Shown here: positions 3,192-63,816 of the stretch, one piece after another | How the letters are laid out: each line of letters opens with the position of its first letter | Position numbering within the stretch: the stretch's first letter is position 1 | Made by a program: the position numbers and the translations under genes | Notes under the pieces: model-generated | Told to the model about the DNA's origin: nothing | The model's database searches: none | What the model saw: the letters and a program-made list of their open reading frames with translations, nothing else | Source of the DNA: Patescibacteria group bacterium | GTDB taxonomy: Bacteria; Patescibacteriota; Gracilibacteria; Peribacterales; Peribacteraceae | Direction of reading: 5' to 3' | DNA length: 64,000 nucleotides | Assembly (NCBI GenBank): GCA_018814875.1 | Contig: JAHIYH010000045.1 | Coordinates: 13,316 to 77,315 of the forward strand

Positions 3192-3331
3192 ATGTCGTTT
3201 CTCTAGTATTTATGCCCTATAACCTAAACTAGCCCCTAGCTGCCTAGTTCCTAGCGCCTATTTAATCAGGATATTCAGGGCTTTTACAGTGGTTTCGTTA
3301 AATAGCAAAACATGCTATAATAAGAGAAAGA

Positions 3332-7443: not shown

Positions 7444-7538
7444 ATTGCTCAATTGCTCCATTTTTCCATTGCTCGCAGGCGATTCTCAAAGCTGATTCAT
7501 CTGATTCCAACAATGGAACAATGAAACAATGGAACCAT
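7444..7538. repeat. hairpin with tandem-repeat arms (CAATGGAA-type 8-nt units)
   Basis: left arm attgctcaattgctccatttttccattgctc is complementary to right arm caacaatggaacaatgaaacaatggaacca; rpsL-rpsG spacer. Confidence 0.65.
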
Positions 7539-7562: not shown

Positions 7563-8015
7563 ATGGCCAAGCCTATCAAACAATACATCCCAAAAGATTC
7601 CGATCCTCTGATCGAGAAGTTCATTTGCTGCATGATGATGGGAGGCAAGAAGAGTATTGCGCGTAAGGTGTTTCAGGATTCTCTGGGAGTGATAAAAACG
7701 CGTACGAATGATGATCCAAAAGATATCTTCAATAAAGCTATCTTAAATGTCACTCCGCTTGTGGAAGTGCGTCCAAAGCGTGTAGGAGGTTCGGTGTATC
7801 AGGTTCCTACAGAAGTACCGCCAAAGCGACAGCAGGCACTCTCCATTCGCTGGATTATAAAAGCGGCCCGCGAACGTAAAGGTATGCCCATGTCGCAGAA
7901 GTTAGCTATGGAATTCCTAGATGCATCTGCAGACCAAGGAGCTGCAGTAAAAAAGAAACAGGATGTGTTGAGGATGGCACAGGCGAATAAGGCGTTTGCG
8001 CATCTTGCCAAGTAA
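7563..8015 (+). CDS. rpsG: 30S ribosomal protein S7
   Basis: S7 family sequence (VEVRPKRVGGSVYQVP), 150 aa, follows rpsL. Confidence 0.97.
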   Translation: MAKPIKQYIPKDSDPLIEKFICCMMMGGKKSIARKVFQDSLGVIKTRTNDDPKDIFNKAILNVTPLVEVRPKRVGGSVYQVPTEVPPKRQQALSIRWIIKAARERKGMPMSQKLAMEFLDASADQGAAVKKKQDVLRMAQANKAFAHLAK

Positions 8016-8040
8016 GGAAGGTAAAGAAGGTCAGGAAGGT
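8016..8040. repeat. left arm (GGTMARGAA)n flanking four-helix-bundle gene
   Basis: ggaaggtaaagaaggtcaggaaggt, reverse complement of the array at 8476..8535. Confidence 0.7.
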
Positions 8041-8429
8041 ATTGTTGTTACTGGAGTTTTTGAGCTGCACGACTTTATTAGTTTGAAAAGTAGAAATGAA
8101 ACACAGTTAAGTTGATCTAAGAGTTGTTTGTATATTTCTTCATTCAAATATCCTAAATCGCTCGCGAGTTCCAAAAAATTATCAACTTCTGCTGCAGATG
8201 CATATGCTCTTTCGTAATAGATCTTTCTGTGTGGGGCAGTGCTCATGCGTGATCCTTCAACAATTTGTGCCCCAATAGAACTTGCTGCACGTCGCAATTG
8301 GCTTGTGATACCGAATTTCTCTTCTTTAGGAAATGTAAGAGTTGCACGATAAATCATTAATGTGAATTTGTGTGATTCCTGCCATACGATCAGTTTTCTA
8401 AAGCCGTTCTTAAATTTCATATTTGACAT
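8031..8429 (-). CDS. four-helix-bundle protein (23S rRNA intervening-sequence protein family)
   Basis: LIVWQESHKF...QLRRAASSIGAQIVEG motif typical of this family; antisense to the rpsG-fusA transcription direction. Confidence 0.85.
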   Translation of the reverse strand: MSNMKFKNGFRKLIVWQESHKFTLMIYRATLTFPKEEKFGITSQLRRAASSIGAQIVEGSRMSTAPHRKIYYERAYASAAEVDNFLELASDLGYLNEEIYKQLLDQLNCVSFLLFKLIKSCSSKTPVTTIPS

Positions 8430-8475
8430 GTGTACAAACGTACACCCTATTCAGTTGTTGTGCAATAGAAAAATA

Positions 8476-8535
8476 CCTACTTTACCTTCCTTACCTTCTT
8501 TACCTTCTTTACCTTCTTTACTTTCCTTACCTTCT
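8476..8535. repeat. right arm (CCTTCTTTA/CCTTCCTTA)n flanking four-helix-bundle gene
   Basis: cctactttaccttccttaccttctttaccttctttaccttctttactttccttaccttc; 9-nt period. Confidence 0.7.
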
Positions 8536-24291: not shown

Positions 24292-24538
24292 ATCGTGCTC
24301 CATAGAGACACGTTACTCTGGTGAGTTTCCACAATCGCTATCCGCTTAGTGGTAGCAGAGATGAGGTGCACTGCGAGACGAAATCGTAATCTCGGCTACA
24401 AAAGCATTGCACATATTGAGTATATCAAAAAAAGAACCCCCGCGAAAAAAATGTCGCGGAGGTTCCAGCCTTCGCCTATCGGCTACGGCCGGCAGGCAAG
24501 GTGTCAAAAGGGTCAAGCCCTCAAGACTTCAAGGTTCA
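24292..24538. repeat. conserved 3' flank of target gene 1 (copy a of ~247-bp repeat)
   Basis: about 6 mismatches in 247 nt versus 25437..25683 by hand alignment; contains terminator and GC-rich element 24466..24500. Confidence 0.85.
24427..24465 (-). terminator. rho-independent terminator of target gene 1
   Basis: minus strand gaacctccgcga-N8-tcgcgggggttc followed by TTTTTTT. Confidence 0.7.
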
Positions 24539-25225
24539 GGACTTCCGAGCGGCCGACAGCCACAAGTGGCCATAGCGACCGCCACCCAAGCCGCAGACGA
24601 CGACCACGCGACCCCCGTCGATATCGAGCGCGACGTAGTCGCCATCAGGGAGCGCTTCTTCGCAACGACACCAGTCGTTTCTCAGGAGATCGTCGCCAAC
24701 CTCCGTCAGATGGACAAGTAGGGCTGTCGCGGCGACACAAACAGGTGCCGGTTGCCATTCAGCGTCAATACCGGACAGATGTTCAGTCTGCTCACTCCAT
24801 TTTTTGCGGTTCGAGTTCGGAACAGGTAGTAGTAGACGGTAATAGCCCGACTCTGCTTTCCATTCGTGCTGCTCGTACCAGTCCTGATCTTGCATCATGC
24901 GCTCTTGTCCAGCTTTGCTTTCGCGCAGCTCTTTTAGACTCCAACCACCGTAATAGATGACGACTTCGCCATCTTCGGGCTTCGGAGTTGGGACGTTGCA
25001 CTCTGCAGGCAGACCGAGGATACGGCTTACCGCAGTAGCATCGTAGACGATGCCATGCTGGGGACATCCTGCTTGCATGTGACGGACGAGACGTTGCATT
25101 TGAGACGGATCATCAATGCTCGGCTGAAGATCAGTCGAGAGATCGAGACCCTGCTTAGCAGCGCGTTCTGCCCATGCCAGCAGCTTCTTGGTAACAGCAA
25201 ATTCGTCGACAATAGGGTTAGCCAT
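24536..25225 (-). CDS. DGR variable protein 1 (229 aa from the ATG with RBS)
   Basis: aaggag RBS before ATG 25225 (ORF-track start 25282 unlikely); C-terminal 39 codons are VR1; paralog of 25681..26355; no N-terminal hydrophobic segment. Confidence 0.85.
   Translation of the reverse strand: MANPIVDEFAVTKKLLAWAERAAKQGLDLSTDLQPSIDDPSQMQRLVRHMQAGCPQHGIVYDATAVSRILGLPAECNVPTPKPEDGEVVIYYGGWSLKELRESKAGQERMMQDQDWYEQHEWKAESGYYRLLLPVPNSNRKKWSEQTEHLSGIDAEWQPAPVCVAATALLVHLTEVGDDLLRNDWCRCEEALPDGDYVALDIDGGRVVVVCGLGGGRYGHLWLSAARKS
24539..24655 (-). other. DGR variable region VR1
   Basis: 20 substitutions versus TR, all at TR adenines, plus 1 non-A difference and 1 in the terminal GC-rich IMH-like segment (hand count); encodes ALPDGDYVALDIDGGRVVVVCGLGGGRYGHLWLSAARKS*. 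Confidence 0.9.
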
Positions 25226-25437: not shown

Positions 25438-25683
25438 TCGTGCTCCATAGAGACACGTTACTCTGGTGAGTTTCCACAATCGCTATCCGCTTAGTGGTAG
25501 CAGAGATGAGGTGCACTGCGAGACGAAATTGTAATCTCGGCTTCAATAGCATTACACATATCAAGTATATCAAAAAAAGAACCCCCGCGAAAAAAATGTC
25601 GCGGAGGTTCCAGCCTTCGCCTATCGGCTACGGCCGGCAGGCAAGGTGTCAAAAGGGTCAAGCCCTCAAGACTTCAAGGTTCA
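25437..25683. repeat. conserved 3' flank of target gene 2 (copy b)
   Basis: see 24292..24538. Confidence 0.85.
25572..25610 (-). terminator. rho-independent terminator of target gene 2
   Basis: same hairpin plus T-run as 24427..24465. Confidence 0.7.
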
Positions 25684-26355
25684 GGACTTCCGAGCGGCCG
25701 ACAACCACAAGTTGCCACGGCGATTGCCATCCAAGAAGCAGTAGACGTACACGCGACCCTCGTGGATATCGAGTACGACGTAGAGGCCATCAGGGAGCGC
25801 CTCTTCGCAACGACACCAGTCGTTTTTGAGAAGATCGTTTCTGGTCTCCTTCAAATGAACGAGCAGGGTGGAAGCGCAGAGTGCAACTGGAGCAACTTCT
25901 TCACCAGGCAGAAGGAGATCCTTCTGTTCGGTTAAGTTTTTCCTGTTGCTGTCCGGCACTGGCAAACGGACACGGTAGATGCCCGCCGTCAGCTTCGCAC
26001 TTGCGCAGTCGTACTTGTCGTACCAATCCTGCTGGTGCATCAGCTCCTTGCCGACCTCACAGTCACGCAGATCTTGCAAAGACCAGTCTCCGACGCGGAT
26101 AATGATCTCGTCAGGTGCGGGTTCTGGGAGCGGTTCCGTACTCGCTTCTCCGAAGCCGAGGATTGCAATGGCATCGTAGGTGAAGGACGGAAGTCGCACC
26201 GGCCACACGTCTGCAAGACGTTGCATAGAAGCAGCGTCAGCGTCGAGCATGGCAAGCCATCGCTCTGGCGTGATACCCGCCTCTTGGAGTCGCTTTAGGC
26301 CTGTCGTAATCTTCTTCTGTGGCAGACCAGTCAAGCTTGTTGCGGCGGTCTTCAT
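25681..26355 (-). CDS. DGR variable protein 2 (224 aa)
   Basis: aaggag RBS; C-terminal VR2; roughly half of residues shared with protein 1 over the C-terminal ~150 aa (GDWSL..L, QDWY, LPVP.SNRK, NDWCRCEEALPDG). Confidence 0.85.
   Translation of the reverse strand: MKTAATSLTGLPQKKITTGLKRLQEAGITPERWLAMLDADAASMQRLADVWPVRLPSFTYDAIAILGFGEASTEPLPEPAPDEIIIRVGDWSLQDLRDCEVGKELMHQQDWYDKYDCASAKLTAGIYRVRLPVPDSNRKNLTEQKDLLLPGEEVAPVALCASTLLVHLKETRNDLLKNDWCRCEEALPDGLYVVLDIHEGRVYVYCFLDGNRRGNLWLSAARKS
25684..25800 (-). other. DGR variable region VR2
   Basis: 14 substitutions versus TR, all at TR adenines, plus the shared IMH-like difference; encodes ALPDGLYVVLDIHEGRVYVYCFLDGNRRGNLWLSAARKS*. Confidence 0.9.
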
Positions 26356-28088: not shown

Positions 28089-28156
28089 TTAGCTTCTAGC
28101 TTCTAGCTTATAGGCATCGTACTTCTCGTACCCTAACAGCTAAAAACTAGAAGCTG
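28089..28156. repeat. hairpin with (AGCTTCT)n arms
   Basis: ttagcttctagcttctagct ... agctaaaaactagaagctga. Confidence 0.6.
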
Positions 28157-28600: not shown

Positions 28601-28640
28601 GGGGGAAAAAGAGGAAAAGGAATTAAAGGAGAAAAAAGAG
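28601..28640. repeat. purine-rich arm (plus strand) flanking four-helix-bundle gene
   Basis: gggggaaaaagaggaaaaggaattaaaggagaaaaaagag, complementary to 29027..29070. Confidence 0.65.
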
Positions 28641-28641
28641 A

Positions 28642-29019
28642 TTACTTATTAAGTATGCCAGATCGAAATTTATTGAGTAGATAACTAACTTTTCCAACTT
28701 GATTGTTGAGTTCCTCGTATTGTTCTGCGGTGATGTAATCTAATCTTGAGCTAAGCGAGAGTTGGTAGTCCAATTCTTCCAATGAACCTTCGGCATGCTC
28801 AAGATAGTGAAGTCGCTCCTTATTTGAGCGTTTCGTATTGCCTTCAACAATGTTGGTCGGGACACTTGTGGCAGATCGTCTTATCTGCGCACAGAGAGCA
28901 TATCGTTCTTCAGGAGGAAATTTAGGAAGTAATTTATAAACTTCGAGACAGAGTGCATCTGCCTCTTTCCAAACAATCAAATTCTGATAAGGGCGTTTTC
29001 TCATAGAAAAGTTATTCAC
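28642..29019 (-). CDS. four-helix-bundle protein (23S rRNA IVS protein family)
   Basis: LIVWKEADALCLEVY...QIRRSATSVPTNIVEG motif; GTG start. Confidence 0.85.
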   Translation of the reverse strand: MNNFSMRKRPYQNLIVWKEADALCLEVYKLLPKFPPEERYALCAQIRRSATSVPTNIVEGNTKRSNKERLHYLEHAEGSLEELDYQLSLSSRLDYITAEQYEELNNQVGKVSYLLNKFRSGILNK

Positions 29020-29026
29020 GATAACA

Positions 29027-29070
29027 CCCTTTTTCTCCTTTGTCTCATTTTTCTCCTTTATCTCCTTTAT
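29027..29070. repeat. pyrimidine-rich arm (plus strand) flanking four-helix-bundle gene
   Basis: ccctttttctcctttgtctcatttttctcctttatctcctttat. Confidence 0.65.
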
Positions 29071-30164
29071 TAGACATTAAACTTAAACAGCATCACATCC
29101 CCATCCTTTACTAAGTATCCCTTCCCTTCGCTTCGCATCTTCCCCCTTTCCTTTGCGCCAGCTTCCCCGCCAAATTCTACAAAGTCATCGTAAGCAATTG
29201 TTTCTGCACGAATGAACCCTTTCTCGAAGTCTGTGTGGATCACCCCTGCAGCCTGTGGTGCTTTGGAGCCTTCGCGAACAGTCCACGCGCGTGCTTCCTT
29301 GGGGCCTGCTGTAAAGAAGGTGATGTAACCTAGTGCAGAGTATGCGGCTCGTGCAAGTGAATCGAGTCCTGACGAATTTACTTTGAATTCACTTAAAAAC
29401 TCTTTGGTTTCTTCTGCAGAGAGATCTTGCAAATCTTCTTCTATCTTTGCAGAAATCGTCACCACTTCACTTTCTTCCGGAAGCCCAAGTTGTTCACGTG
29501 CTTCGTGCACACTAAGAGTGTGAAGTTGATTTTCGGAAACATTTGCTGCGTAAATAATCGGTTTATTGGTCATAAGATTAAATGTGCTCATGATCTTTGC
29601 TTCATCTTCGTTAAGCTGAGTAGTAGATGCGAAGAGCGTTTGTTCTAGTTGAGCTTTTACTTTCTCCAGAACTTGGGCTTCCTTTTGTTTTTCTGTACCC
29701 CCAATCTTGGCAGCATTACCGATCTTATCGAATCGATTCTCTATTGTCTGAAGATCAGAAAGGCAAAGTTCTGTTTCTATTGTCTCTCTGTCACGTTTGG
29801 GATCTACTGCTCCTTCCACATGTGTTACGTTTTGATCATCAAAGAATCGTACTATGTGGCAGAGAGCATTAACTTCTCGTATTGCTCCCAGAAATTTGTT
29901 CCCCAGTCCTTCTCCTTTGTGGGCTCCTTTAACTAGTCCTGCAATGTCCAGAAATTCAACTGTTGCTGGTACAACCTTTTCTGGTTTCACTATCTCAGTA
30001 ATTTTGTCTAATCGTTCATCAGGAACTTTTACAATTCCAACGTTAGGATCAATAGTACAGAAAGGGAAGTTTCCTGCTTCTGCTCCACGTGTTCTAGTGA
30101 GCGCATTAAAGAGCGTGGATTTGCCTACGTTAGGAAGACCGATGATGCCGATTTGCATAGCCAT
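29070..30164 (-). CDS. ychF: ribosome-binding ATPase YchF
   Basis: IGIIGLPNVGKSTLFNALT G1 motif, C-terminal TGS-like domain (GFIRAE...); start trimmed to MAMQIGIIG. Confidence 0.93.
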   Translation of the reverse strand: MAMQIGIIGLPNVGKSTLFNALTRTRGAEAGNFPFCTIDPNVGIVKVPDERLDKITEIVKPEKVVPATVEFLDIAGLVKGAHKGEGLGNKFLGAIREVNALCHIVRFFDDQNVTHVEGAVDPKRDRETIETELCLSDLQTIENRFDKIGNAAKIGGTEKQKEAQVLEKVKAQLEQTLFASTTQLNEDEAKIMSTFNLMTNKPIIYAANVSENQLHTLSVHEAREQLGLPEESEVVTISAKIEEDLQDLSAEETKEFLSEFKVNSSGLDSLARAAYSALGYITFFTAGPKEARAWTVREGSKAPQAAGVIHTDFEKGFIRAETIAYDDFVEFGGEAGAKERGKMRSEGKGYLVKDGDVMLFKFNV

Positions 30165-30217
30165 TGATGGGCATAGTACTTTGTTCGATTGATGTAGCAA
30201 AATATTCTCTTGTGATA

Positions 30218-30383
30218 GGAAACCAAGGAATCCTAAGAAACCTAAGAATCCAAAGAATGGTTATGTTTTTATCGACATAAATCTTGATAGATGTTTCACA
30301 ACAGCCCCTTGGATTCCTTGGTTTCCTTGGTTTCTTAGGATTCCTTGGTTTCTTCGGATTCCTTGGTTTCCTTAATTTCTTAG
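30218..30383. repeat. long hairpin with (CCAARGAAW)n 9-nt-unit arms
   Basis: ggaaaccaaggaatcctaagaaacctaagaatccaaagaatgg ... cccttggattccttggtttccttggtttcttaggattccttggtttcttcggattccttggtttcc; lies in a divergent promoter region. Confidence 0.7.
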
Positions 30384-30482
30384 ATTACCAATAAATTGCC
30401 TCCAAAACGGTAATTCAAAGCCAAATACGACCATCTCAGAGCATTGACAATTATGCATAACTCTTTACAATAAGACCCTTAC

Positions 30483-31739
30483 ATGCGCAAACGTCTAGTA
30501 TCATTTTTGGCTTACCACGCGTCGCTCGCGAGCGCCGTGGCTTATATAGCGCTTCTGAGCGTCACAGTGGCAGCGAATGCCGCTTCGTTTGCGGATGTCT
30601 CTGGAACGCCATACGAGACAGCATTTGTATATCTTTCTCAAAAAGGGATCATTAATGGGTACATAACAGGAGAAGGAAGACCCAACGGACCTCTTAATAG
30701 AGCGGAAGCTTTAAAAGTTATTATGGGACTTAGATATAAAGATCGTGTTGAGTGGTTCGAGCAAAACATGGTTCCAATGCCGCTTTTTGTAGATATCGAT
30801 CAGAATGCATGGTATGCGCCATACATCGAAGCGGCTTTTGAAGCGAATCTTATAACTGGTTATTCCGATCGTACCTTTCGTCCATCACATTATCTGACGG
30901 TGGAAGAGGCTGTGACGATGGCGTTACGTGCGTATGGAGTGTTAGGTTCCGACAATGGGGCAGAGCTTTCCCCATATATTCAGAATCGTGATAGTGAATG
31001 GTTTACACCATATATAAATGCGGCAATCACAAAGAACCTGATTATGCATCAGGGCAGATTGGAACTTGGTCAGGTGATGACGCGCGGGCGCTTCTTCGAT
31101 TTAGTTTACCGTTTGGATAAAGTGCAGAAAGATGGGTCACTGGCATATCGTGGTCTAGAGCCGCAATCTCCTGTGTCAGCGCAACAGAGAGTACAGATTG
31201 TGCAGGCCGTGCAGTCACGAACGACTAGTCAGATATCACAAGGAACGATCAATGTGCCACAGACAGTTGCAGTTGCACAGAATTCCCATGCATCCGAGAA
31301 ATATTTCTCCCTTTCTATGCCAACACTTGGGGTAGATGATTTGACCGTGACGCATCCCTCCGATCCTTTTACTTCTGATGGAGTACTTAATCCGTTGCAG
31401 CAAGGTGTTGGGCACCTATTTAGTTATCCTGGTGCAGGAGGAAAGATTATGATTTACGGGCACTCTTCCGGCTATCCATGGGATGTTTCGCAGTACACGA
31501 AGATCTTCCGTAAGGTGAATCAGCTAACTGTTGGTGATCGTATATATGTAACTTATGAAAATAAGCTATTCGCGTACGAGGTAAATTATAAGCAGACGAT
31601 TGCTGCAAGTGATACTAGTCCGTTCAATGATTCAGGTAGTGGAGAAGAGCTCATTCTCTATACTTGCTGGCCACCGGATTCAATCAGTCAACGTTATCTG
31701 GTGCATTCGGTGCCGGTGAGTGCGGTAGCATTGAGATAG
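30483..31739 (+). CDS. SLH-domain protein fused to a sortase-like transpeptidase domain
   Basis: signal/TM, SLH-like repeats (FADVSGTPYE...GIINGY, WYAPYIEAA...ITGYSDRTFRP), C-terminal IYGHSS...LILYTCWP...QRYLV matches the sortase His/Cys/Arg triad pattern. Confidence 0.6.
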   Translation: MRKRLVSFLAYHASLASAVAYIALLSVTVAANAASFADVSGTPYETAFVYLSQKGIINGYITGEGRPNGPLNRAEALKVIMGLRYKDRVEWFEQNMVPMPLFVDIDQNAWYAPYIEAAFEANLITGYSDRTFRPSHYLTVEEAVTMALRAYGVLGSDNGAELSPYIQNRDSEWFTPYINAAITKNLIMHQGRLELGQVMTRGRFFDLVYRLDKVQKDGSLAYRGLEPQSPVSAQQRVQIVQAVQSRTTSQISQGTINVPQTVAVAQNSHASEKYFSLSMPTLGVDDLTVTHPSDPFTSDGVLNPLQQGVGHLFSYPGAGGKIMIYGHSSGYPWDVSQYTKIFRKVNQLTVGDRIYVTYENKLFAYEVNYKQTIAASDTSPFNDSGSGEELILYTCWPPDSISQRYLVHSVPVSAVALR

Positions 31740-32317: not shown

Positions 32318-32416
32318 GTGGGAAAAGGGAAAGAAATAAATATGTGTTTATATATATTATAACATATATCTGCATAATTAGGAAGTATTAAATAGGAAGT
32401 ATTAGATATTTGTTGA

Positions 32417-32532
32417 TTAGGCACTAGGTTCTAGGCTCTAGGGACTAGATTAGGGACTAGGCAGCTAGGCACTAGGGGCTAGTATTATTGAACTAATTGC
32501 TTGTTGTATCTAGTCCCTAGAGCCTAGTGCCC
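32417..32532. repeat. hairpin with (NNNTAGG)n CTAG-rich arms
   Basis: ttaggcactaggttctaggctctagggactag...ggcactaggggctag versus tctagtccctagagcctagtgccc. Confidence 0.65.
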
Positions 32533-32641
32533 AAACACAGTTGGGTATAAAAAAGAAGAGAAGAATGACTAAAGCGTTCTTCTCTTCCAATGTGTCTTCT
32601 TGAATTGATCTTAAGAAGACTTCGCGAAATCTTCGAGAATA

Positions 32642-33733: not shown

Positions 33734-36214
33734 TTACCCAATCCTTCTCAATATTTCCCTATCCACGAACTCCTTCTGTCTTCCATACGTCAAACGGCTT
33801 AATTGTTTAAATGCTTCTGCTGCCTGTGGGTCTTTTGGATATGTTGTATCCAGCCATGGGCGTGGTACTTCTATCGAGAATGGGCGTGAAGGCTTGCCAT
33901 CAATACTCAGTTTCATCGCTCCCTTGAATGCATCCATATTCACCAGATCTTGTTCCGAGAAGACTGGTGCCATTTCTTTAGCTCCAACTTCAGCATCTTG
34001 CGGTCCAATTTTGTAGAACATCATCGTACCGACGTTTCCAAATATTGCTCCTTTGAGGCTGGTCTTACCGGAGAGTCTGTCATCTTTTTCTAGCTGATCT
34101 ATGTATTGATGAGCTAGAACCAAGCCAAGGCGATACTTTCTGGCTTCAGAAAGAATCGATTCAATCGAATCGGTTACAAAGTTTTGGAATTCATCAATGT
34201 ATAGGAAGAAGTCACGTCGCTCCTCACTTGATTGCTGTTGCCTTCGCATTGCAGCAACTTGGATTTTATTTACAAAGATCATACCAAGAAGTTGTGAGTT
34301 GATATCTCCTATCAGTCCCTTGGATAGATTCACCAGTAGAATCTTCCCATTATTCATGACTTCCGAAATATCAAAAGAGCTCTTGGTTTGTCCTACTATA
34401 TTGCGGATGAGTGTGTTGGTGTAGAACTGTCCGAATTTAGCCGCAAAATAGGGGATCATCTCTTGTTTCTCGCGTTGACCGGTTTGTGCCATTTGCTTCT
34501 CCCAGAAGGATCTTACGATAGGGTTCTTTACTTTGGATACTTTGTATTTCTGCCAATCATCATCTGTGAATAGTTTGACGAGGTCGGTAATTGCTCCACC
34601 TTCTTCTTCATCTTCCATCAAAGTAAGACATCCATTTCGGAAGTAATCCTGAAGACGAGGTCCAAAGACTTCGTTTCCAAACATCTTCACCATCATGTTC
34701 ATGGCATCAAGTGCGATCAGGTCTCTCTCTTCTGCTGTTTTCCCTTCCAGTAAGTTAAGACCCATAGGACGCTGAGTATCTGCTGGATTAAAGTAGATCA
34801 CATCATCGGCACGTTCACGTGGGATGTATGGGAGCAGATCTTCGACCAATGATCCGTGCGGGTCCACTATGCACAACCCCTTTCCATCATGAAAATCCTG
34901 CCGTGCCATTAGTTGCATGATCGAAGACTTACCAGTACCAGTTTGTCCGATTATGTATAAATGACGGAAACGATCTTCGTTTTTCATGAAAACATCACGT
35001 TTTTCTCCGCGGTGTGTATTGGTTCCAAGTCTTAATCCTTCTTCCGGAAGATCCTTTGGAGCAGGGGCAATTTTAAAGTTCTGCCATTTAATTGTTTCTA
35101 CTTTGTTATATTTGATATTGGGCAAATGGAAGAAGCTGGTGAGCTCAGTTGTACCAAGGAGCATCTTGGGTGACAGGAGTGTTTGCTTTAGTGTGCGATG
35201 TGGAGAACGTCTAATAAAATTCGTAATGGTTTTCTTCAGTTGGACTATTCGTGGCTTCTTAAAGCCATTGCCACGGACGGCTGTGAATTGTCCAAAGGAT
35301 GCTGCTAGTGAGTTTAGAAGTGTCTGAGTACGCGCTTGATTATCTGCAGAGGTAACTAGTCGTATCACACAATTGAATCCTGGTTGTCCGGCCTTCTCGT
35401 CTATTGCTTTGCTATATTCCTCTACCATTTGCGAAACACGTTCACCTGTTGCTTGCGCTTCGCCTTGTATATTAATCAGCTCATTGCCATGTGTGATTAT
35501 GCTGAAAGCTGCTGATAACCATCCGATAGGATTCCACCATTTTATACTTTTCTTTTTTGGATTAATGATTTGTGCGGCTGCTTTTTGCAGATGTTTCTGC
35601 CATCCCGATTTTACAGGTTGAAGAACTAATTGCACCGCTGCACCCTCGCCTACTTCCAGTTTGGAAAATGCATTCGTAATGTTATTAAATGGATCACTCT
35701 TGAGTTGTTGATACGTACGGAATACTGACGTGAATGGTTTGGCGGGAGAGAGTGGTTGTACTGCGACTACTGATTTTTCTGTGAAGATGTTGTAGTCTTC
35801 CACTTCGTCGATGATCGTATCAGGGTAGAAGGATGTAATTTGTTTTTCTATTAAAGAAGCGTACTTTCGTGGGCAGACTACGAAGAAAAGAATCTCTCCT
35901 GCAAGTGCTGCGTATTCCAAAGAAAAGAACGGCTGCCCGCGCCAGAGTCGTTCGATGCGGGATTCATAGATTCCGTGCAATGCTTCAAAAAGATGTTCCA
36001 TTACACCAAGAACTTCACGGAAGTCCTGACCTGTGGAGAAGCGCTCCGATTCAACCTCTTTGTCTTCTTTGCTTTCCTTCTTTGGTATTAAAAGTTGCAG
36101 AAAAACTAAGTCTCTCTCATATCTACGTTCAGCCGCACGGCGGCAGAGCCAGAGTAGGCCCATAGTGCCTCCAGCTAGAGAAATAAGTGCAATGATAATG
36201 AAAAGGATGTTCAT
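33734..36214 (-). CDS. membrane-anchored VirD4/TraD-TraG-like (FtsK/HerA superfamily) P-loop ATPase, paralog 1
   Basis: N-terminal TM; Walker A IIGQTGTGKSS; CIVDPHGSL; Walker B FLYIDEFQNF; paralog of 58432..61044. Confidence 0.65.
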   Translation of the reverse strand: MNILFIIIALISLAGGTMGLLWLCRRAAERRYERDLVFLQLLIPKKESKEDKEVESERFSTGQDFREVLGVMEHLFEALHGIYESRIERLWRGQPFFSLEYAALAGEILFFVVCPRKYASLIEKQITSFYPDTIIDEVEDYNIFTEKSVVAVQPLSPAKPFTSVFRTYQQLKSDPFNNITNAFSKLEVGEGAAVQLVLQPVKSGWQKHLQKAAAQIINPKKKSIKWWNPIGWLSAAFSIITHGNELINIQGEAQATGERVSQMVEEYSKAIDEKAGQPGFNCVIRLVTSADNQARTQTLLNSLAASFGQFTAVRGNGFKKPRIVQLKKTITNFIRRSPHRTLKQTLLSPKMLLGTTELTSFFHLPNIKYNKVETIKWQNFKIAPAPKDLPEEGLRLGTNTHRGEKRDVFMKNEDRFRHLYIIGQTGTGKSSIMQLMARQDFHDGKGLCIVDPHGSLVEDLLPYIPRERADDVIYFNPADTQRPMGLNLLEGKTAEERDLIALDAMNMMVKMFGNEVFGPRLQDYFRNGCLTLMEDEEEGGAITDLVKLFTDDDWQKYKVSKVKNPIVRSFWEKQMAQTGQREKQEMIPYFAAKFGQFYTNTLIRNIVGQTKSSFDISEVMNNGKILLVNLSKGLIGDINSQLLGMIFVNKIQVAAMRRQQQSSEERRDFFLYIDEFQNFVTDSIESILSEARKYRLGLVLAHQYIDQLEKDDRLSGKTSLKGAIFGNVGTMMFYKIGPQDAEVGAKEMAPVFSEQDLVNMDAFKGAMKLSIDGKPSRPFSIEVPRPWLDTTYPKDPQAAEAFKQLSRLTYGRQKEFVDREILRRIG

Positions 36215-36267: not shown

Positions 36268-36384
36268 CCTAGGAGCTAGGGGCTAGGGACTAGGCGTCTA
36301 GGGACTAGTAGAAACGAACTATAGGCTTGTTTAATCTAGCCCCTAGTTCCTAATGCTTAGTCCCTAAACTAGCCCCTAGCTGCC
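36268..36384. repeat. hairpin with CTAG-rich arms
   Basis: cctaggagctaggggctagggactaggcgtctagggactag versus tctagcccctagttcctaatgcttagtccctaaactagcccctagctgcc; the last 23 nt recur at 3223..3245. Confidence 0.65.
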
Positions 36385-36857: not shown

Positions 36858-36937
36858 TGGAAAGAAACCAAAGAATCCGAGGAAACCAAAGAATCCAAAG
36901 GGTAAGACTGTTAGTCCTTTGGTTTCCTAGGTTTCTT
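36858..36937. repeat. hairpin with (CCAARGAAW)n arms
   Basis: tggaaagaaaccaaagaatccgaggaaaccaaagaatccaaaggg versus cctttggtttcctaggtttctt. Confidence 0.65.
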
Positions 36938-38455: not shown

Positions 38456-38490
38456 ATGGGAATGGGGTGAAGTTACGAGAGAATCGGATT

Positions 38491-38597
38491 GTTTCATTGT
38501 TCCATTGTTGGTGACTACTTCGAGAATCGCTTGCTTGCCCTGAGTGAGTGTAGTGATATCGAAGGGCGAACAATGGAGCAATGAAGCAATGGAACAG
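38491..38597. repeat. hairpin with CAATGGAA-type arms
   Basis: gtttcattgttccattgttg versus gaacaatggagcaatgaagcaatggaacag. Confidence 0.6.
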
Positions 38598-38735: not shown

Positions 38736-38823
38736 TTCGCGTTAGGACCGCGGCGATCGGGAGGGAGTGATGGATCTATTTTTACTTATTGAGATGGTAT
38801 AAGGCAAGAATTTACCGAAGAAA

Positions 38824-38890
38824 GTTTCTAGTTTCTGGTTATTAGTTTCTAGTTGGGATCGTTAACTAGAAACCAGAAACTAGAAACCAG
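38824..38890. repeat. hairpin with (GTTTCTA)n arms
   Basis: gtttctagtttctggttattagtttctagtt versus aactagaaaccagaaactagaaaccag; right arm overlaps the glyQS stop codon. Confidence 0.65.
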
Positions 38891-40472
38891 CCAACTTCTC
38901 AATCAGTTCCCCAACTGCAATTCGTTCTTGTTTCAGGCTATCACGATCACGAATCGTCACAGTATCTTTCTTACCTTGTTTCTTATCTTCACCAAGAGTT
39001 CCAAAATCGACCGTAACTGCTTTAGGAGTTCCGATTTCGTCCTGTCTGCGGTAGCGCTTTCCAATTGAACCTGTGATGTCGAAGTCGGTGACTAGGTCAG
39101 TTTTATCCAAAATCATCTTATGAATCTCCTGTGCTTTTTCGATCAAGTGATCTTTTTTGCTGAGAGGAAGAATTGCTATGTCAACAGGGGATAGGCGCGG
39201 ATCAAATTTCATAAGAGTTCGCACGTCACCATTTTCTAATTCTTCTTCTGTGTATGCATCCAGCAAGAAAGTGAGGACAGTACGGTCACATCCAAAGCTT
39301 GGTTCTATCACATGTGGAATAAACTTATTCTTAGGATCATTTGGATCGGTGTACTTAAGCTCCTCTCCGGAGAACTTTTCATGTTGAACTAGATCGAAGT
39401 CACCACGATTTGCGAGACCAAACAGTTCACCCCATCCCCATGGGAACTTGTATTCAATGTCTATTGTGCGGGAGCTGTAGTGGCTAAGTTCATCTTTATC
39501 ATGTTCGCGAATGCGCATCGTATCTTTATCAATCCCCAAATCCATGTACCAATCCCATACTTGCGCTTTCCATTCTTCAAATGCATCTGCATCTTTTCCG
39601 GGTTCCACAAAATATTCAATTTCCATCTGTTCAAATTCACGTGTTCGGAATGTGAAGTTGCCAGGCGTGATTTCGTTCCTGAATGCCTTTCCGATCTGTG
39701 CGACTCCAAAGGGGAGGCGAGGGCGCTCAGTATCAATAATATTCTTAAAGTTTGCGAAGATTCCTTGAGCAGTTTCGGGACGTAAGTAAATAGGAGTTCC
39801 TTCGCCTTCTATTACCCCTTGATGAGTTTTAAATAGAAGATTAAATGACTTGCCCTCTGTTAATTCTCCACCACAGTAAGGACAAGGAGTTTGCAATCCG
39901 TCGCGTGTTAGTTGTTCTGTAGCTAAGTAGCGAATTAGTTCTCTTATGGAGCTTAGAATTTCTGTTTCAGACCAACTTAGTGATTCGAGCTTTTCTGAGA
40001 CCCACGAAATAGTGATGGAAGGATTCCTAACAAGGGCAAGATTTGGTGCAAGTTTTGTCGCTGTTTTTTCTCCCCATGTTTTAAGATCGGATAATGTCAC
40101 TTCTTTTTGTTTGTATAATTCTGTAAGTGATTGGAACCATGAGCTTTGTTCAATCAACATGTCCCAATGATCCATGCGGATGTGTTTTTTGCAAAACTTG
40201 CATGTGCTCATTAGATCTGTGAATAAATCGAGGTGCCCGCTTGCTTCCCAAACTTTTGGGTTCATCAAGATTGCACTGTCTAACCCAACAATCTCTGGAC
40301 GCTTGTGTACAAATGTCCGCCACCACTGTTTCTTCACATTGTTTTTCAGCTCTGCTCCAAGTGGGCCGTAGTCCCATGTGTTTGCCAGTCCTCCGTAGAT
40401 TTCTGATCCAGGGAAGATAAAGCCCCTGCGTTTGCAGAGGGAGACGATTTGGTCGAGAGATTCAGCTGGCAT
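38880..40472 (-). CDS. glyQS: glycine--tRNA ligase (dimeric class II type)
   Basis: RRGFIFPGSEIYGGLANTWDYGPLG N-terminus, class II motifs, anticodon-binding C-terminus. Confidence 0.93.
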   Translation of the reverse strand: MPAESLDQIVSLCKRRGFIFPGSEIYGGLANTWDYGPLGAELKNNVKKQWWRTFVHKRPEIVGLDSAILMNPKVWEASGHLDLFTDLMSTCKFCKKHIRMDHWDMLIEQSSWFQSLTELYKQKEVTLSDLKTWGEKTATKLAPNLALVRNPSITISWVSEKLESLSWSETEILSSIRELIRYLATEQLTRDGLQTPCPYCGGELTEGKSFNLLFKTHQGVIEGEGTPIYLRPETAQGIFANFKNIIDTERPRLPFGVAQIGKAFRNEITPGNFTFRTREFEQMEIEYFVEPGKDADAFEEWKAQVWDWYMDLGIDKDTMRIREHDKDELSHYSSRTIDIEYKFPWGWGELFGLANRGDFDLVQHEKFSGEELKYTDPNDPKNKFIPHVIEPSFGCDRTVLTFLLDAYTEEELENGDVRTLMKFDPRLSPVDIAILPLSKKDHLIEKAQEIHKMILDKTDLVTDFDITGSIGKRYRRQDEIGTPKAVTVDFGTLGEDKKQGKKDTVTIRDRDSLKQERIAVGELIEKLAGF

Positions 40473-40522
40473 ATCGAAGCATACGGTACAGTAATGGTGT
40501 GGGGGTCACAATAATATCAGAT

Positions 40523-40616
40523 GCATTGTTCAATTGTTCCATGGTTCCATTGTTCTAAAGAGGCACAAGCCTGTTTATCGCTTGCGAACAATGGAGCAAT
40601 GAAACCATGGAGCAAT
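40523..40616. repeat. hairpin with CAATGGAA-type arms
   Basis: gcattgttcaattgttccatggttccattgttc versus gaacaatggagcaatgaaaccatggagcaat; divergent spacer. Confidence 0.65.
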
Positions 40617-40706
40617 ATACAGAAAAACACCACTACCTAATATCGTCAATTTATGTTATAATTAACCCAAATACCCACATTCACTATACGCGTACTTTCT
40701 AGATGT

Positions 40707-42359
40707 TTGGCAATCCTAACAGGACTAACTATTCCGTTGAGTGTATTAGCAGTAGAAGTGGAAGGAGAAGTCGCCGGTTTGAGTAATGGCAATCTGACGT
40801 TAATTGGATGTATTGCAGTTGGAGCAATTATCGGATGCTTACTCGCACGATTTTGGATGGGCATTTGCAATAATGTTTTGCTGGATCATGAACCGATTTC
40901 TTCTATTCAAAAACGCAAACCTTACTTCCCACGATCGCGCATGGTTTTTGGCACTGTGTTAGTGACCGGTGCGGTTTTCATTTTTTCTATGCGTGTGCTG
41001 GGTGGAGTGGCTCCATTTGATACGATGCAAAACTCTACGTTGCTTCTGGGATTCCTCGTAGCAGGAACAGCTTGTGTATTACTACAAATAAAATTCAAGT
41101 GGTCACGCGATTATATCTTCGCAGCGCTGATGGGAACCGTGCTTGCATTTGGGTTGCTTGGTCTTACACAAGTACTTCTGTACACGGATGCTCATCAAGA
41201 TCCTTTCATTATGGCATTGGGAATTGTATGCGCGATAGTGCTTTGGAGATTTCTGTTTGGACCTTGGACACCACGCATTAAAGCTGTTGTTCTTGGATCA
41301 TTTATTTTGTGGGTTGGTGTAAATGTGCTCTTCAAAGAAAATTCAGATGAGCGATTTGCACATTTGATTGCAGCTGGAGTTGCACTCATTCCGGCGTTTA
41401 TCTGGTGTTGGTTCTTTTTGGAATATCACAAACAACGATGGAGCATGGTATTACTCATGTTCTTTGCTGGAATGTTATCTACGGCGCCGATTCTCTTTTA
41501 CGATTCACTGGTACGGCGTGGCGTAGAATTGCAGTTCTTCCTATTTAAGATTGTTCCACAAAACTTCAGCAGCGTATCCAATGCATTTGTGTCTGGTGAT
41601 ATAATCAGATCGTCTGGTGTTAAGTCGACGATTCTGTCGATGTTCATATCATTCCTAATCGTGGGACTTATAGAAGAAGCATCCAAATTGTGGGTGCTCA
41701 AAAAGAGCGGAAGACAGTTCTTTTCCAGTATTGATGATGTCATTCAGATGGCAGTGATTGTTGCAATTGGATTTGCATTTGCAGAGAATGTGCTCAATCC
41801 CACGTACTTCTTGGGATTTGTGCGCGAGTTTCTTACTCAGTCTTCTGAGCCGCAGTGGTTGGCATTTATTGGAAACGTTTCGGGGCGAGCGATCCTTACA
41901 ACTATGGTGCATATTGTTGCATCGGGTGTGATGGGATACTTCTTGGGGCTTGCGATCTTTGCAAAACCATATTTGGATGATGTACATAAAAAAGGACGTG
42001 TTCCCATTGTTGCAGGCTTGCTGCACTTCATATTCCGTTTCCCGGAAAAAAGAGTGTTTCGTGTACAGATGATTCTTATGGGACTCACGCTCTCAACGGT
42101 TTTACATGGGCTCTTCAACTTCATGGTTACGTTGCCTGATATGCTTCCCGGACGACCAGAAACCTTTGGAGCTCTTCTTGGACTTTCGGAAAGCAATTTC
42201 TTAGGTGGGATTCCAATCTTGCTATTGCCGTCTTTCCTTTACATCGTTGGAGGGTTCTGGCTATTTACAGTTCTGTTCTATCGTCAGGAAAGTGTGAAGG
42301 AACGTGGCAGACTGGTTACGACTGATACGTTTGTTAGGGGGGAAATGGCTGGGGCTTGA
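40707..42359 (+). CDS. polytopic membrane protein, PrsW-family intramembrane protease-like
   Basis: >=10 predicted TM helices; GLIEEASKLW (EE motif) and HGLFNF (HxxxN) resemble PrsW signatures; TTG start. Confidence 0.55.
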   Translation: MAILTGLTIPLSVLAVEVEGEVAGLSNGNLTLIGCIAVGAIIGCLLARFWMGICNNVLLDHEPISSIQKRKPYFPRSRMVFGTVLVTGAVFIFSMRVLGGVAPFDTMQNSTLLLGFLVAGTACVLLQIKFKWSRDYIFAALMGTVLAFGLLGLTQVLLYTDAHQDPFIMALGIVCAIVLWRFLFGPWTPRIKAVVLGSFILWVGVNVLFKENSDERFAHLIAAGVALIPAFIWCWFFLEYHKQRWSMVLLMFFAGMLSTAPILFYDSLVRRGVELQFFLFKIVPQNFSSVSNAFVSGDIIRSSGVKSTILSMFISFLIVGLIEEASKLWVLKKSGRQFFSSIDDVIQMAVIVAIGFAFAENVLNPTYFLGFVREFLTQSSEPQWLAFIGNVSGRAILTTMVHIVASGVMGYFLGLAIFAKPYLDDVHKKGRVPIVAGLLHFIFRFPEKRVFRVQMILMGLTLSTVLHGLFNFMVTLPDMLPGRPETFGALLGLSESNFLGGIPILLLPSFLYIVGGFWLFTVLFYRQESVKERGRLVTTDTFVRGEMAGA

Positions 42360-42376
42360 GGGGATAAAAGTAATAG

Positions 42377-42565
42377 AGGAATGTAGAGGAATCCAAAGAA
42401 ACCAAAGAAACCAAGGAATCCGAAGGGCGATTTTAGTCTTTGTGTAGCGAATCTATATTATTCTTTGGATTCCTTGGATTCTTAGGTTTCCTTGGATTCT
42501 TAGGTTTCCTTGGATTCTTAGGTTTCTTTGGATTCTTTGGATTCTTTGGATTCCTTCCTCTACAA
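42377..42565. repeat. long hairpin with (CCAARGAAW)n arms
   Basis: aggaatgtagaggaatccaaagaaaccaaagaaaccaaggaatccgaaggg versus about 100 nt of ttctttggattccttggattcttaggtttcc repeats. Confidence 0.7.
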
Positions 42566-44335: not shown

Positions 44336-44396
44336 GATGAGGTGTCGGGTGTCGGGTTTTAGGTTTCAAAAACTGGTATTCAGGTTTGTTTCTGCC
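44336..44396 (+). repeat. 61-bp direct repeat, copy 1
   Basis: gatgaggtgtcgggtgtcgggttttaggtttcaaaaactggtattcagg(t/c)ttgtttctg, one mismatch versus 44718..44778. Confidence 0.8.
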
Positions 44397-44465
44397 ATTT
44401 AACACATGATACATATAAATGCAGTAATCTCTTGTTCATGTTACATGAGGTGCTATTGTCGATTT

Positions 44466-44657
44466 ATGATTGACGAAATGATGCGAGAAACATTAGAAAA
44501 TCTTTCAGAACTTTCTCCTGAACAGCGTAAGAAAGTATTGAGTGGTTTAGGTTTATCTTTAACCGCACGAAAAAATATTGAGTCTTTGCTGAAGCTATTG
44601 CCACTGGATGATGATCCTGAAATGGGAACCGGTTGTGGCGTACTGCGTCCGTCTTAG
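44466..44657 (+). CDS. small hypothetical protein (63 aa) bracketed by the 61-bp direct repeats
   Basis: MIDEMMRETLENLSELSPEQRKK...; gaggtg about 15 nt upstream; no known domain. Confidence 0.4.
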   Translation: MIDEMMRETLENLSELSPEQRKKVLSGLGLSLTARKNIESLLKLLPLDDDPEMGTGCGVLRPS

Positions 44658-44717: not shown

Positions 44718-44796
44718 GATGAGGTGTCGGGTGTCGGGTTTTAGGTTTCAAAAACTGGTATTCAGGCTTGTTTCTGTAACCTGACACTTGACACCT
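44718..44796 (+). repeat. 61-bp direct repeat copy 2 plus complementary right arm (complete hairpin)
   Basis: aggtgtcgggtgtcgggtt pairs with aacctgacacttgacacct; both mismatches are G:U-compatible only in a plus-strand RNA. Confidence 0.7.
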
Positions 44797-45023: not shown

Positions 45024-45088
45024 TTCTGGTAGAGGTTAAGGGAGAGGCGTGTATTTATCAAGAAAAATAGAGAAAAAAGAAAGTAACA

Positions 45089-45181
45089 AGTTCCAAGTAC
45101 CAAGTACCAAAAAGGTCCAAGTTCCAAGTACCAAGTACCAAAAAGGTAGTCTTGGGCCTTGGAACTTGGTACTTGGAACTT
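45089..45181. repeat. hairpin with (CCAAGTA)n arms
   Basis: agttccaagtaccaagtaccaaaaaggtccaagttccaagtaccaagtaccaaaaagg versus ccttggaacttggtacttggaactt; divergent spacer rpsU/gyrB. Confidence 0.7.
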
Positions 45182-47282: not shown

Positions 47283-47286
47283 CACA

Positions 47287-47425
47287 AGGGGTAAGGGGAA
47301 AAGGGAAAAGGGAAAAGGGTAAGGGGAAAAGGGAAAAGGGTAAGGGGAAAAGGGAAAAGGGTAAGGGGAAAAGGTAAAGGGAAAAGGGTAAGGGGAAAAG
47401 GTAAAGGGAAAAGGGTAAGGGGAAA
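47287..47425. repeat. purine-rich arm: about 140 nt of GGGTAAGGGGAAAAGGGAAAAG-type tandem repeats
   Basis: higher-order repeat of GGGAAAAG / GGTAAGG units; complementary to 47840..47907. Confidence 0.75.
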
Positions 47426-47479
47426 ATGAATGCATGGAATGTTTGACATGCATAAATGATTGAATGAAGATGAGAAGCT

Positions 47480-47839
47480 ATGGCTGGTAATCCTATTCTT
47501 CGGCAAAAGGCATTCACGTTTGCATTGAGCACTGTCACTTTTTGCAAAAAATTGAATGAAAATAGAGAGTATGTACTTAGTAATCAGTTGCTCAAATCAG
47601 GTACTTCTATTGGTGCTAATATTGAAGAGGCTCAACAAGCAGAAAGCAGAAAGGATTTCATTTCGAAATATTCCATTTCTCTAAAGGAGGCTTACGAAAC
47701 ACGCTATTGGCTAAGACTAATTGGTAAAGGTGTAGAAGGGACTGAAGAAGTTACTGCAAAGCTATTGAGCGATGTTGATGAAATCATTCGCATTCTTGTT
47801 GTAAGCATCAAAAGCTTGAAAGCAGGTCTAAAAAAATAG
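47480..47839 (+). CDS. four-helix-bundle protein (23S rRNA IVS protein family)
   Basis: QLLKSGTSIGANIEEA...ETRYWLRL motifs of the family. Confidence 0.85.
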   Translation: MAGNPILRQKAFTFALSTVTFCKKLNENREYVLSNQLLKSGTSIGANIEEAQQAESRKDFISKYSISLKEAYETRYWLRLIGKGVEGTEEVTAKLLSDVDEIIRILVVSIKSLKAGLKK

Positions 47840-47907
47840 TTTCCCCCTTTCCCTTTACCCCTTACACCTTTTACATTCCCCCTTACCCTTTCCCCCCTTT
47901 CCCTTTC
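47840..47907. repeat. pyrimidine-rich arm complementary to 47287..47425
   Basis: tttccccctttccctttaccccttacaccttttacattcccccttaccctttccccccttt... Confidence 0.7.
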
Positions 47908-54999: not shown

Positions 55000-55073
55000 C
55001 TATCAACAATCAACAATCAACAGTCAACAATCCACCTTCAACGAAGTTGTTGATAGTTGATAGTGGAAGGTGG
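55000..55073. repeat. hairpin with (CAACAAT)n arms
   Basis: ctatcaacaatcaacaatcaacagtcaacaatccaccttcaac versus gttgttgatagttgatagtggaaggtgg. Confidence 0.65.
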
Positions 55074-62966: not shown

Positions 62967-62976
62967 ATTCAGACAA

Positions 62977-63813: not shown

Positions 63814-63816
63814 ATG

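Follow-up and report, generated by a model that had tools for sequence, protein, structure and literature searches.

The classical intervening sequences (IVSs) of 23S rRNA genes, known from Salmonella, Leptospira, and Coxiella burnetii, are fold-back elements that are cut by RNase III within the stem and that occur with or without an open reading frame (ORF) of the PF05635/S23p type (PMC4990558). The IVS ORF was proposed to be a mobility factor by Ralph and McClelland, as cited in PMC4990558. The rRNA genes of the candidate phyla radiation (CPR) contain short uncharacterized insertions at IVS sites together with 23S_rRNA_IVP ORFs, in an account from which the phrase "tandem repeat" is absent (PMC11270868). 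Heptamers repeated between genes are known from Xanthomonas (GGGAATC) and Nostoc (GGGGAYT), where about four units are preferred, and were read by Rehm et al. (2015) as G-quadruplex formers; 70 to 75 convergent inverted GGGAATC pairs of Xanthomonas are able to form stem-loops, and no link to PF05635 or to IVSs was drawn (PMC4692102). Beggiatoaceae carry direct TAACTGA repeats (PMC4679880). Here, we describe a Peribacteraceae genome in which intergenic hairpins with arms made of short tandem repeats are abundant, starting from one such hairpin at positions 30216 to 30383 of a stretch of 64,000 nucleotides (hereafter, the window). With a probability of roughly 0.7, we consider these hairpins to be IVS-like, PF05635-linked inserted elements rather than regulatory hairpins that evolved locally. 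In the library that was searched, no paper was found to connect intergenic hairpins with repeat arms to both PF05635 genes and rRNA IVSs.

The window is C43:13316-77315 of a metagenome-assembled genome (MAG) of 1.42 Mb in 70 contigs, labeled G000, with completeness given as 98.8%. Its YchF protein shares 74% identity with the YchF of a "Candidatus Peribacteraceae" MAG, and further close matches are in Peribacteria, Gracilibacteria, and Patescibacteria, which places the genome in the CPR.

Hairpins with tandem-unit arms

The hairpin at 30216 to 30383, which a preliminary description of this DNA had flagged, is built from the 9-nt unit GAAWCCAAR. Tandem Repeats Finder (TRF) placed 4.4 copies of the unit at 30219-30258 and at least 7.4 copies of its reverse complement at 30307-30381, and the best pairing between the arms spans 41 nt with 90% complementarity. 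As RNA, the stretch is predicted to fold at -65.3 kcal/mol (z = -6.5); as DNA, at -36 kcal/mol (z = -7.0). None of 200 shuffled sequences folded equally well. Between the arms lies a core of about 48 nt that recurs at seven loci in all, the flagged one and at least six others; small stems recognized by eye in this core are not retained in the flagged copy. A 24-nt pattern taken from the core matched two Methylococcaceae contigs only, and the one that was inspected reads like ordinary sequence without a hairpin, so that it was taken as a chance match. A 27-nt flank of the hairpin had no match in metagenome contigs, and at the gathering threshold Rfam recognized only a tRNA in the whole window.

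The flagged hairpin is placed between two divergent genes, ychF (29070-30164, minus strand) and a sortase/SLH gene (30483-31739, plus strand). On the sortase side, TTGACA-16-TACAAT at 30444-30471 is the sole strong promoter-like site of the spacer, and the hairpin lies upstream of it. A TACTAT box just ahead of the ychF start appears by eye to be conserved in three congeners, which weakly suggests that ychF, too, is transcribed away from the hairpin. Because it lies upstream of the only strong promoter-like site, the hairpin is probably part of neither the ychF nor the sortase mRNA. No intrinsic terminator was called at the locus.

The preliminary description had counted more than 20 hairpins with arms of 7- to 9-nt tandem units in the window, in several families, and had assigned them to nearly every intergenic spacer. 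The count held, at about 21 loci. Of these, 16 are among the 44 spacers of at least 30 nt, as ungapped inverted repeats with a score of at least 14 (dinucleotide shuffles of the spacers scored only 4 to 13), and the others are three gene-bearing cassettes and two weaker hairpins. The share of spacers had been overstated, since roughly half of the longer window spacers and about 30% of spacers genome-wide are occupied. Two loci that had been listed as inverted repeats, at 3223 and 62648, are lone tandem arrays without an inverted partner.

Across the genome, where hairpin loci were collected by a seed-and-extend scan, the pattern of the window is repeated on a larger scale. Tandem arrays are eight-fold denser between genes (4.35 per kb) than in coding DNA (0.54 per kb) and cover 16% of intergenic bases; periods 7, 8, and 9 dominate, with 7 the commonest, followed by 9 and then 8. 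An inverted partner lies within 250 nt of 544 of the 1427 arrays (38%), compared to 25 of 1427 (1.8%) when each array was paired with the flank of another. The scan returned 348 hairpin loci. Arms are periodic in 228 of them (period 7 in 119, period 8 in 53, and period 9 in 52), and these fall into about 41 unit families, mostly A/T-rich or mixed, with only a few that are G-rich (GGGWAAA, GGGYGTR). Gene-less periodic hairpins make up 7.9% of intergenic DNA. Their density of 14.4 per 100 kb compares with two such hairpins in 504 kb drawn from 80 other bacteria.

The arms of the elements have a median length of 27 nt and a median of 4.4 units. Loops are mostly 20 to 60 nt in gene-less elements and about 400 nt in gene-bearing ones, which hold a PF05635 gene or, in a few cases, a PDDEXK_3 gene. 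Arms of unequal length had been noted as frequent, and the two arms differ at least 1.5-fold in 45 of 163 hairpins.

Gene positions come from our own ORF and hexamer heuristic, so that the classes of spacer are approximate. Inverted repeats with a score of at least 14 occupy 50 of 158 convergent spacers (32%), 144 of 495 tandem spacers (29%), and 52 of 197 divergent spacers (26%), and about 0 to 1 after shuffling; the genome-wide repeat scans that the preliminary description had called for bear out the intergenic enrichment. A T-run (at least six T in the eight positions after an arm, on either strand) follows 28 of 202 hairpins (14%). Given their equal frequency in spacers of all three orientations, and a T-run after only 14%, the hairpins are not ordinary terminators. 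The first reading of the window had said the same, and copies in the str operon and in the 23S rRNA gene agree with it. It had also noticed arms that overlap stop codons: the median gap between a hairpin and the adjacent stop codon is 4 nt, the two overlap in 47 of 165 cases, and start codons lie at a median distance of 44 nt.

Insertion between genes and in the 23S rRNA gene

Can an empty site be recognized at the junctions that now carry a hairpin? Among 24 genera of the family, ten have an rpsL-rpsG spacer of 2 to 46 nt that is free of inverted repeats, and six (G000, G048, G016, G018, G049, and G033) have one of 89 to 143 nt with periodic-arm hairpins, made of a different unit in each. The rpsG-fusA spacer spans 21 nt to more than 800 nt and holds a PF05635 cassette in G000 and in G041, the two proteins being 56% identical and the arms different. 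The str operon of G000 holds both kinds of element, a hairpin at its rpsL-rpsG junction and a complete cassette at its rpsG-fusA junction.

At the flagged locus, the orthologous ychF-sortase spacer contains a GAAWCCAAR hairpin in G000 and in two congeners (G001 and G003); in a third, G004, the hairpin belongs to a different family. The G001 and G003 hairpins have about 4.4 units per arm and a loop of 10 to 15 nt. The G000 hairpin has about 7.4 units in its 3' arm and the 48-nt core in its loop. Species therefore differ in copy number and in what the loop holds, in keeping with the variable stem length that had been suspected from the repeats.

The same families are found inside the single 23S rRNA gene (C68:36511-41548, outside the window), which is much longer than the model. 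Against the 3035-nt gene of G021, a relative that lacks hairpins, at least eight insertions stand out. Two of these resemble group I introns (39571-40324, which contains a LAGLIDADG-type ORF, and 40359-41099); the remaining six or more are tandem-arm hairpins of the intergenic families, namely, three copies of one GAYAATT element with a common loop, one ATTGCTCC element with the GCAAGCGA motif, and two AAGTWCC elements. Relative to G021, the insertion at C68:37397-37626 replaces the apical loop of helix 25, a classical IVS site. The elements have landed at helix tips of the 23S rRNA gene. Congeners also have long 23S rRNA genes (4562 nt in G003 and, longer still, 6413 nt in G001).

Could the hairpins instead be cis-acting RNA elements, selected locus by locus as processing sites, as REP-like (repetitive extragenic palindromic) stabilizers of 3' ends such as those of Escherichia coli, or as unconventional bidirectional terminators, with the PF05635 link secondary? 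We consider this unlikely, even though their placement speaks for it: the hairpins abut stop codons and keep their distance from start codons, and the ychF-sortase spacer retains a hairpin in four congeners, in one of them from another unit family. Fold stability is also very high, and RNase III, whose gene (rnc) the genome contains, could act on stems of this length. The distances to stop and start codons are, however, equally expected from purifying selection on random insertions, acting against hits to promoters and ribosome-binding sites. Selection at each locus is also difficult to reconcile with the equal frequency in divergent, tandem, and convergent spacers, with the small proportion of T-runs, and with the flagged hairpin, which is probably in neither mRNA (the ychF promoter being read by eye). 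The rpsL-rpsG junction works hairpin-free in ten genera, and elements of the same families lie inside rRNA.

Families of hairpins bear marks of common origin. Within families, the version of the unit that forms the 5' arm is fixed, in 197 cases versus 20, where independent local inverted duplication predicts about half of each. Because this property reads alike on both strands, it reflects shared descent of whole hairpins. Loops are conserved in two families, at the seven loci of the flagged GAAWCCAAR family and at 16 loci of the ATTGTTCC family, and GCAAGCGA directly follows the 5' arm in about 20 of 22 ATTGTTCC copies, the gene-bearing copy and the rRNA copy included. The hairpins are insertions copied to many spacers regardless of gene orientation.

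Two other repeats were seen alongside the hairpins. Among the ATTGTTCC-family loops (for example 38510-38568 of the window, which is C43:51825-51883, and C12:22865-22928), some contain a module of about 33 nt, GCCCTTCGATATCACTACACTCACTCAGGGC, and others lack it; it looks like a small palindromic element nested within the hairpin loops. A distinct dispersed repeat, GACCTCACCCCC(C)GA(T/C)CCCTCTCC, is arranged in inverted pairs at C3:3906-4507, C55:578-1181, C23:11041-11297, and C43:97771-98137, and two of these pairs enclose DUF559 (Vsr-like endonuclease) genes.

PF05635 genes between the arms

Inverted arms of tandem units flank all 21 PF05635 genes of the genome, and in 20 cases their score is at least 15. 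Three belong to the window (PF05635/TIGR02436), and their proteins also match Avd models, more weakly (PF22296, 2e-9; NF033474, 5e-12; phrog_3206, 6e-13). The arms of the cassettes share units with gene-less hairpins: among 23 families of at least three members, 16 include a gene-bearing copy, usually one or two. No transposase was found in gene-bearing copies, and the PF05635 proteins matched no PADLOC defense-system model. The association extends beyond the CPR. In 14 genomes from elsewhere (Bacteroidota, a betaproteobacterial MAG, Myxococcota, and others), arms of this kind flank 17 of 28 PF05635 genes, compared to 0 of 28 shifted controls. A second gene type shares the arrangement, in that two of three PDDEXK_3 (PF13366) genes lie in loops of repeat-armed hairpins (C36:1882-2422 and C56:948-1409). 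The arm type of the first, GTCTGAAYCAC/GGATTA, recurs without a gene at 62700-62976 of the window; the arms of the second differ.

We then compared genomes. For 16 related genomes, each sampled over 38 to 100 kb, and G000 (17 genomes in all), the density of gene-less hairpins rises with the number of PF05635 genes per Mb (Spearman 0.79, P = 1.7e-4), in a correlation that is not corrected for phylogeny and that uses gene calls from our own ORF heuristic. Seven genomes with 0 to 3 PF05635 genes had no hairpins in the sampled DNA. At the level of single families, homologues of the interior of the GAAWCCAAR cassette exist only in G001 and G003, the congeners that are rich in GAAWCCAAR hairpins (28 and 32 arm matches versus 0 to 3 in the other five congeners); by our own count, the chance of this coincidence, 3 among 8 genomes, is 1 in 56. 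In G000, the PF05635 gene of this cassette (C53:23189-23490) is broken into two overlapping ORFs of 46 and 93 amino acids, by a frameshift or an assembly error. GAAWCCAAR is also the family whose gene-less copies look most recently amplified.

The ATTGTTCC cassette has orthologues in G004, G005, and G002, in which the units (ATTGTTAA, ATTGTTAC) and the junction motif have both diverged; arms and gene were therefore inherited together through speciation. Family-level co-occurrence looked negative for ATTGTTCC by BLAST, the orthologous cassettes having diverged units, and the small samples of G004 and G005 contained no gene-less copies of the cassette variant of those genomes. We also considered gene-less copies as deletion derivatives of resident gene-bearing copies, and loop similarity failed to bear this out except in the ATTGTTCC family.

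These results bear on a second alternative, in which the hairpins are simple-sequence repeats made in situ by slippage and local inverted duplication, neither copied nor served by a protein partner, in the manner of the cyanobacterial short tandemly repeated repetitive (STRR) sequences that Mazel et al. reportedly described in 1990. Such an origin would suit the many lone arrays (only the 544 of 1427 are partnered, and 3229-3260 in the window is an example), the differences in arm copy number between arms and between species, and the uniqueness of most loops. It leaves unexplained why unit orientation is fixed, why loops and junction motifs are conserved at unlinked loci, why every PF05635 gene is within such a hairpin, and why relatives without PF05635 genes lack the hairpins, and we give it little chance of being correct.

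A third alternative invokes elements of the REP/REPIN (REP doublet forming a hairpin) or MITE (miniature inverted-repeat transposable element) type that are moved in trans by a transposase, for example a RAYT-like (REP-associated tyrosine transposase) Y1 enzyme. Two RAYT-like Y1_Tnp genes are indeed present (C41:13742-14311 and C3:2201-2533), the C41 gene (13796-14239) is flanked by an inverted repeat, and the Y1_Tnp count correlates with hairpin density (rho = 0.57). This correlation is gone once the PF05635 count is given (partial 0.02), whereas that of PF05635 given Y1_Tnp is 0.66. The repeat around the C41 gene is GC-rich and non-periodic rather than made of tandem units, about 40 unrelated units are hard to square with one or two sequence-specific transposases, and no target-site duplications were seen. 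We therefore regard mobilization by such a transposase as very improbable. Last, chimeric or collapsed reads in a 70-contig MAG with a few contigs of deviant G+C content might have created the hairpins, but the chance of such an artifact is negligible, as the hairpins are shorter than a read pair and flank intact genes, their families are common to several contigs, and they recur at orthologous sites in independent assemblies, the ychF-sortase spacer holding a matching hairpin in two further assemblies of the genus. The deviant contigs are short (C5, C16, C17, and C66; 55 to 62% G+C compared to about 42% for the genome) and are probably binning contamination.

Several observations weigh against the interpretation of the hairpins as IVS-like, PF05635-linked insertions. 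Only 57 of 227 loops have any homologue and most are unique, and of 112 gene-less loops, 26 resemble a resident gene-bearing loop, mostly marginally. The cross-genome correlation carries the limits given above, and one relative, G027, has 11 PF05635 genes yet no hairpin in the 50 kb sampled. Tests of the bond between protein and unit gave little: the "one gene per family" test was weak (P = 0.053), protein identity did not track the sharing of arm 5-mers (Mantel P = 0.19, not significant), and the best hit had the same period in 12 of 21 cases (P = 0.04), a weak covariation of protein and unit. The family with the best-conserved loops, GAAWCCAAR, has a frameshifted PF05635 gene in G000. PF05635 has no known catalytic motif; target-site duplications are not visible at the rRNA insertion sites, and genome-wide the ends of the arms are too fuzzy for them to be seen.

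How might such elements arise, spread, and be tolerated? We propose that the genome carries about 40 families of fold-back, IVS-type DNA elements, each with two inverted arms in which a unit of 7, 8, or 9 nt, specific to the family, is repeated some four to five times in tandem. Replication slippage would lengthen and shorten the arms. In transcripts, stems of 25 to 60 bp may serve as RNase III substrates and be cut out of rRNA in the manner of classical IVSs, while copies in mRNA could be tolerated as processing or 3'-end structures. Such cutting would explain why the elements are tolerated in rRNA, inside operons, and 0 to 10 nt after stop codons, and on our analysis the odds that RNase III processes transcribed hairpins are about even.

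Spread or maintenance may depend on a PF05635 protein that binds its own tandem units. The dependence is suggested because the element contains no transposase. The suggestion that units are recognized comes only from the co-occurrence of genes and arms, from the figure of about 4.4 units per arm, and from the solved PF05635 homologues 2gsc (XCC0516 of Xanthomonas campestris) and 2rld, each of which has five chains in its PDB entry. That PF05635 is the unit-specific factor behind spread is possible, though the odds are against it. A bolder proposal, to which we give slightly longer odds, is that PF05635 proteins are sequence-specific binders of tandem 7- to 9-nt units, each subunit of a pentamer taking about one unit, and form with the hairpins a class of transposase-free self-propagating elements of which 23S IVSs, STRR sequences, and the Xanthomonas heptamers would be special cases.

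Three decades-old puzzles meet in this genome: intergenic repeats of the heptamer type, the origin and spread of rRNA IVSs, and the function of the very large PF05635/TIGR02436 family. One kind of element makes up about 8% of intergenic DNA, occupies about 30% of spacers, carries PF05635 genes, and interrupts the 23S rRNA gene. The hypothesis can be tested at the bench, as binding of PF05635 proteins to their own units and as excision by RNase III. The elements also matter for annotation, since their arms overlap stop codons and lengthen ORF calls, and they are relevant to the assembly and binning of CPR genomes.

Features of the window and comparison with known systems

The elements of the window are listed below. 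A few further repeats lie among them. Two direct (GGTGTCG)2.4 arrays, at 44341-44357 and 44723-44739, flank a small ORF (44406-44657) and have a weak inverted partner at 44778-44796. At 50931-51332, G-rich tandem repeats of 6, 7, and 12 nt belong to coding sequence and are not hairpin elements; they lie inside a gene at 50733-52568 (minus strand) for a 611-amino-acid predicted membrane protein, where they encode a tail rich in Pro, Glu, Lys, and Thr. Within the G+C-rich segment 23621-27653, an identical small TRF array occurs twice, 1145 nt apart (24513-24545 and 25658-25690). The window also encodes parts of a type IV secretion system, here in a CPR genome, with a VirD4/TraG-like coupling protein at 33734-36214 and a TrbC/VirB2-type pilin gene at 54470-54832.

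Repeat-armed hairpins, gene-bearing cassettes, and one lone array in the window (positions 1 to 64,000)
Positions	Strand	Feature	Details
3229-3260	.	Lone CTAG-rich heptamer array; not a hairpin	Without inverted partner
7444-7535	.	Gene-less hairpin, family ATTGYTCC (8-nt unit), rpsL-rpsG junction	Junction empty in ten related genera
8010-8535	-	Gene-bearing cassette between rpsG and fusA	GAAGGTAAR arms 8012-8041 and 8474-8535; loop PF05635 gene 8031-8429 (-)
28091-28155	.	Gene-less hairpin, (AGCTTCT)n arms	
28604-29068	-	Gene-bearing cassette	Arms (GGAAAAAGA)n 28604-28641 and (CCTTTTTCT)n 29028-29068; loop PF05635 gene 28642-29019 (-)
30216-30383	.	Flagged gene-less hairpin, family GAAWCCAAR (9-nt unit)	5' arm 30217-30258; loop 30259-30306; 3' arm 30307-30381
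32414-32537	.	Gene-less hairpin, CTAG-rich 7-nt units	
36270-36352	.	Gene-less hairpin, (CTAGGRG)n arms	
36861-36937	.	Gene-less hairpin, family GAAWCCAAR	
38488-38591	.	Gene-less hairpin, family ATTGTTCC	
38823-38890	.	Gene-less hairpin, (GTTTCTA)n arms	
40524-40616	.	Gene-less hairpin, family ATTGTTCC, divergent spacer	GCAAGCGA (plus strand: CGCTTGC) adjoins one arm
42374-42556	.	Gene-less hairpin, family GAAWCCAAR	Unequal arms, 45 and 94 nt
45081-45181	.	Gene-less hairpin, (AAGTWCC)n arms, upstream of gyrB	Family also inside 23S rRNA gene
47286-47907	+	Gene-bearing cassette	5' arm (GGGWAAA)n 47289-47426 (19 units); 3' arm 47840-47907; loop PF05635 gene 47480-47839 (+)
55000-55064	.	Gene-less hairpin, (CAACAAT)n arms	CAACAAT unit also in two PF05635 cassettes elsewhere in genome
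58243-58360	.	Gene-less hairpin, family GAAGGTAAR	Unit is that of cassette 8010-8535
61055-61128	.	Gene-less hairpin, (CGTATYT)n arms	CGTATYT unit also in PF05635 cassette C37:16925-17373
62700-62976	.	Two adjacent hairpins, GTCTGAAYCAC/GGATTAMA family	Family bears PDDEXK_3 gene elsewhere in genome
63819-63932	.	Gene-less hairpin, family GAAGGTAAR	ORF track 62977-63873 extends into 5' arm

Avd is a pentameric nucleic-acid-binding partner of the reverse transcriptase of diversity-generating retroelements. The PF05635 proteins of the window resemble it in their matches to Avd models; the cassette genes, however, do not lie beside a reverse transcriptase or a template repeat. The REP/REPIN-RAYT systems offer a parallel in overall design, with many gene-less intergenic palindromes and one or a few copies in which a gene is flanked by matching repeats. 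They differ in the flanked gene, which here encodes a four-helix-bundle protein rather than an HUH Y1 transposase, and in the arms, which here are tandem arrays.

The heptamer repeats and STRR sequences share with our elements tandem 7-nt units that are enriched between genes in runs of about four, and the source of the solved PF05635 homologue 2gsc, Xanthomonas campestris, belongs to the genus of the GGGAATC heptamers. Those repeats use one G-rich unit, whereas most units here are not G-rich and have periods of 7, 8, or 9, and they are under-represented between divergent ORFs (PMC4692102), unlike the hairpins of this genome.

The 23S IVSs differ from the hairpins described here in location, in gene content, and in the makeup of the arms. 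The flagged hairpin and all copies in the window are intergenic, with none at the tip of 23S helix 25 or 45, although a sibling copy in the 23S rRNA gene (C68:37397-37626) is at the helix 25 tip. Most copies, the flagged one among them, have no gene, and the arms are tandem arrays of 7 to 9 nt, in about 40 families within a single 1.4-Mb genome. What the two have in common is the fold-back design itself, terminal inverted repeats that form a long stem around a loop with an optional PF05635 ORF. They also share a site of insertion: unit families of this genome sit in its 23S rRNA gene as well, one of them in place of the helix 25 loop.

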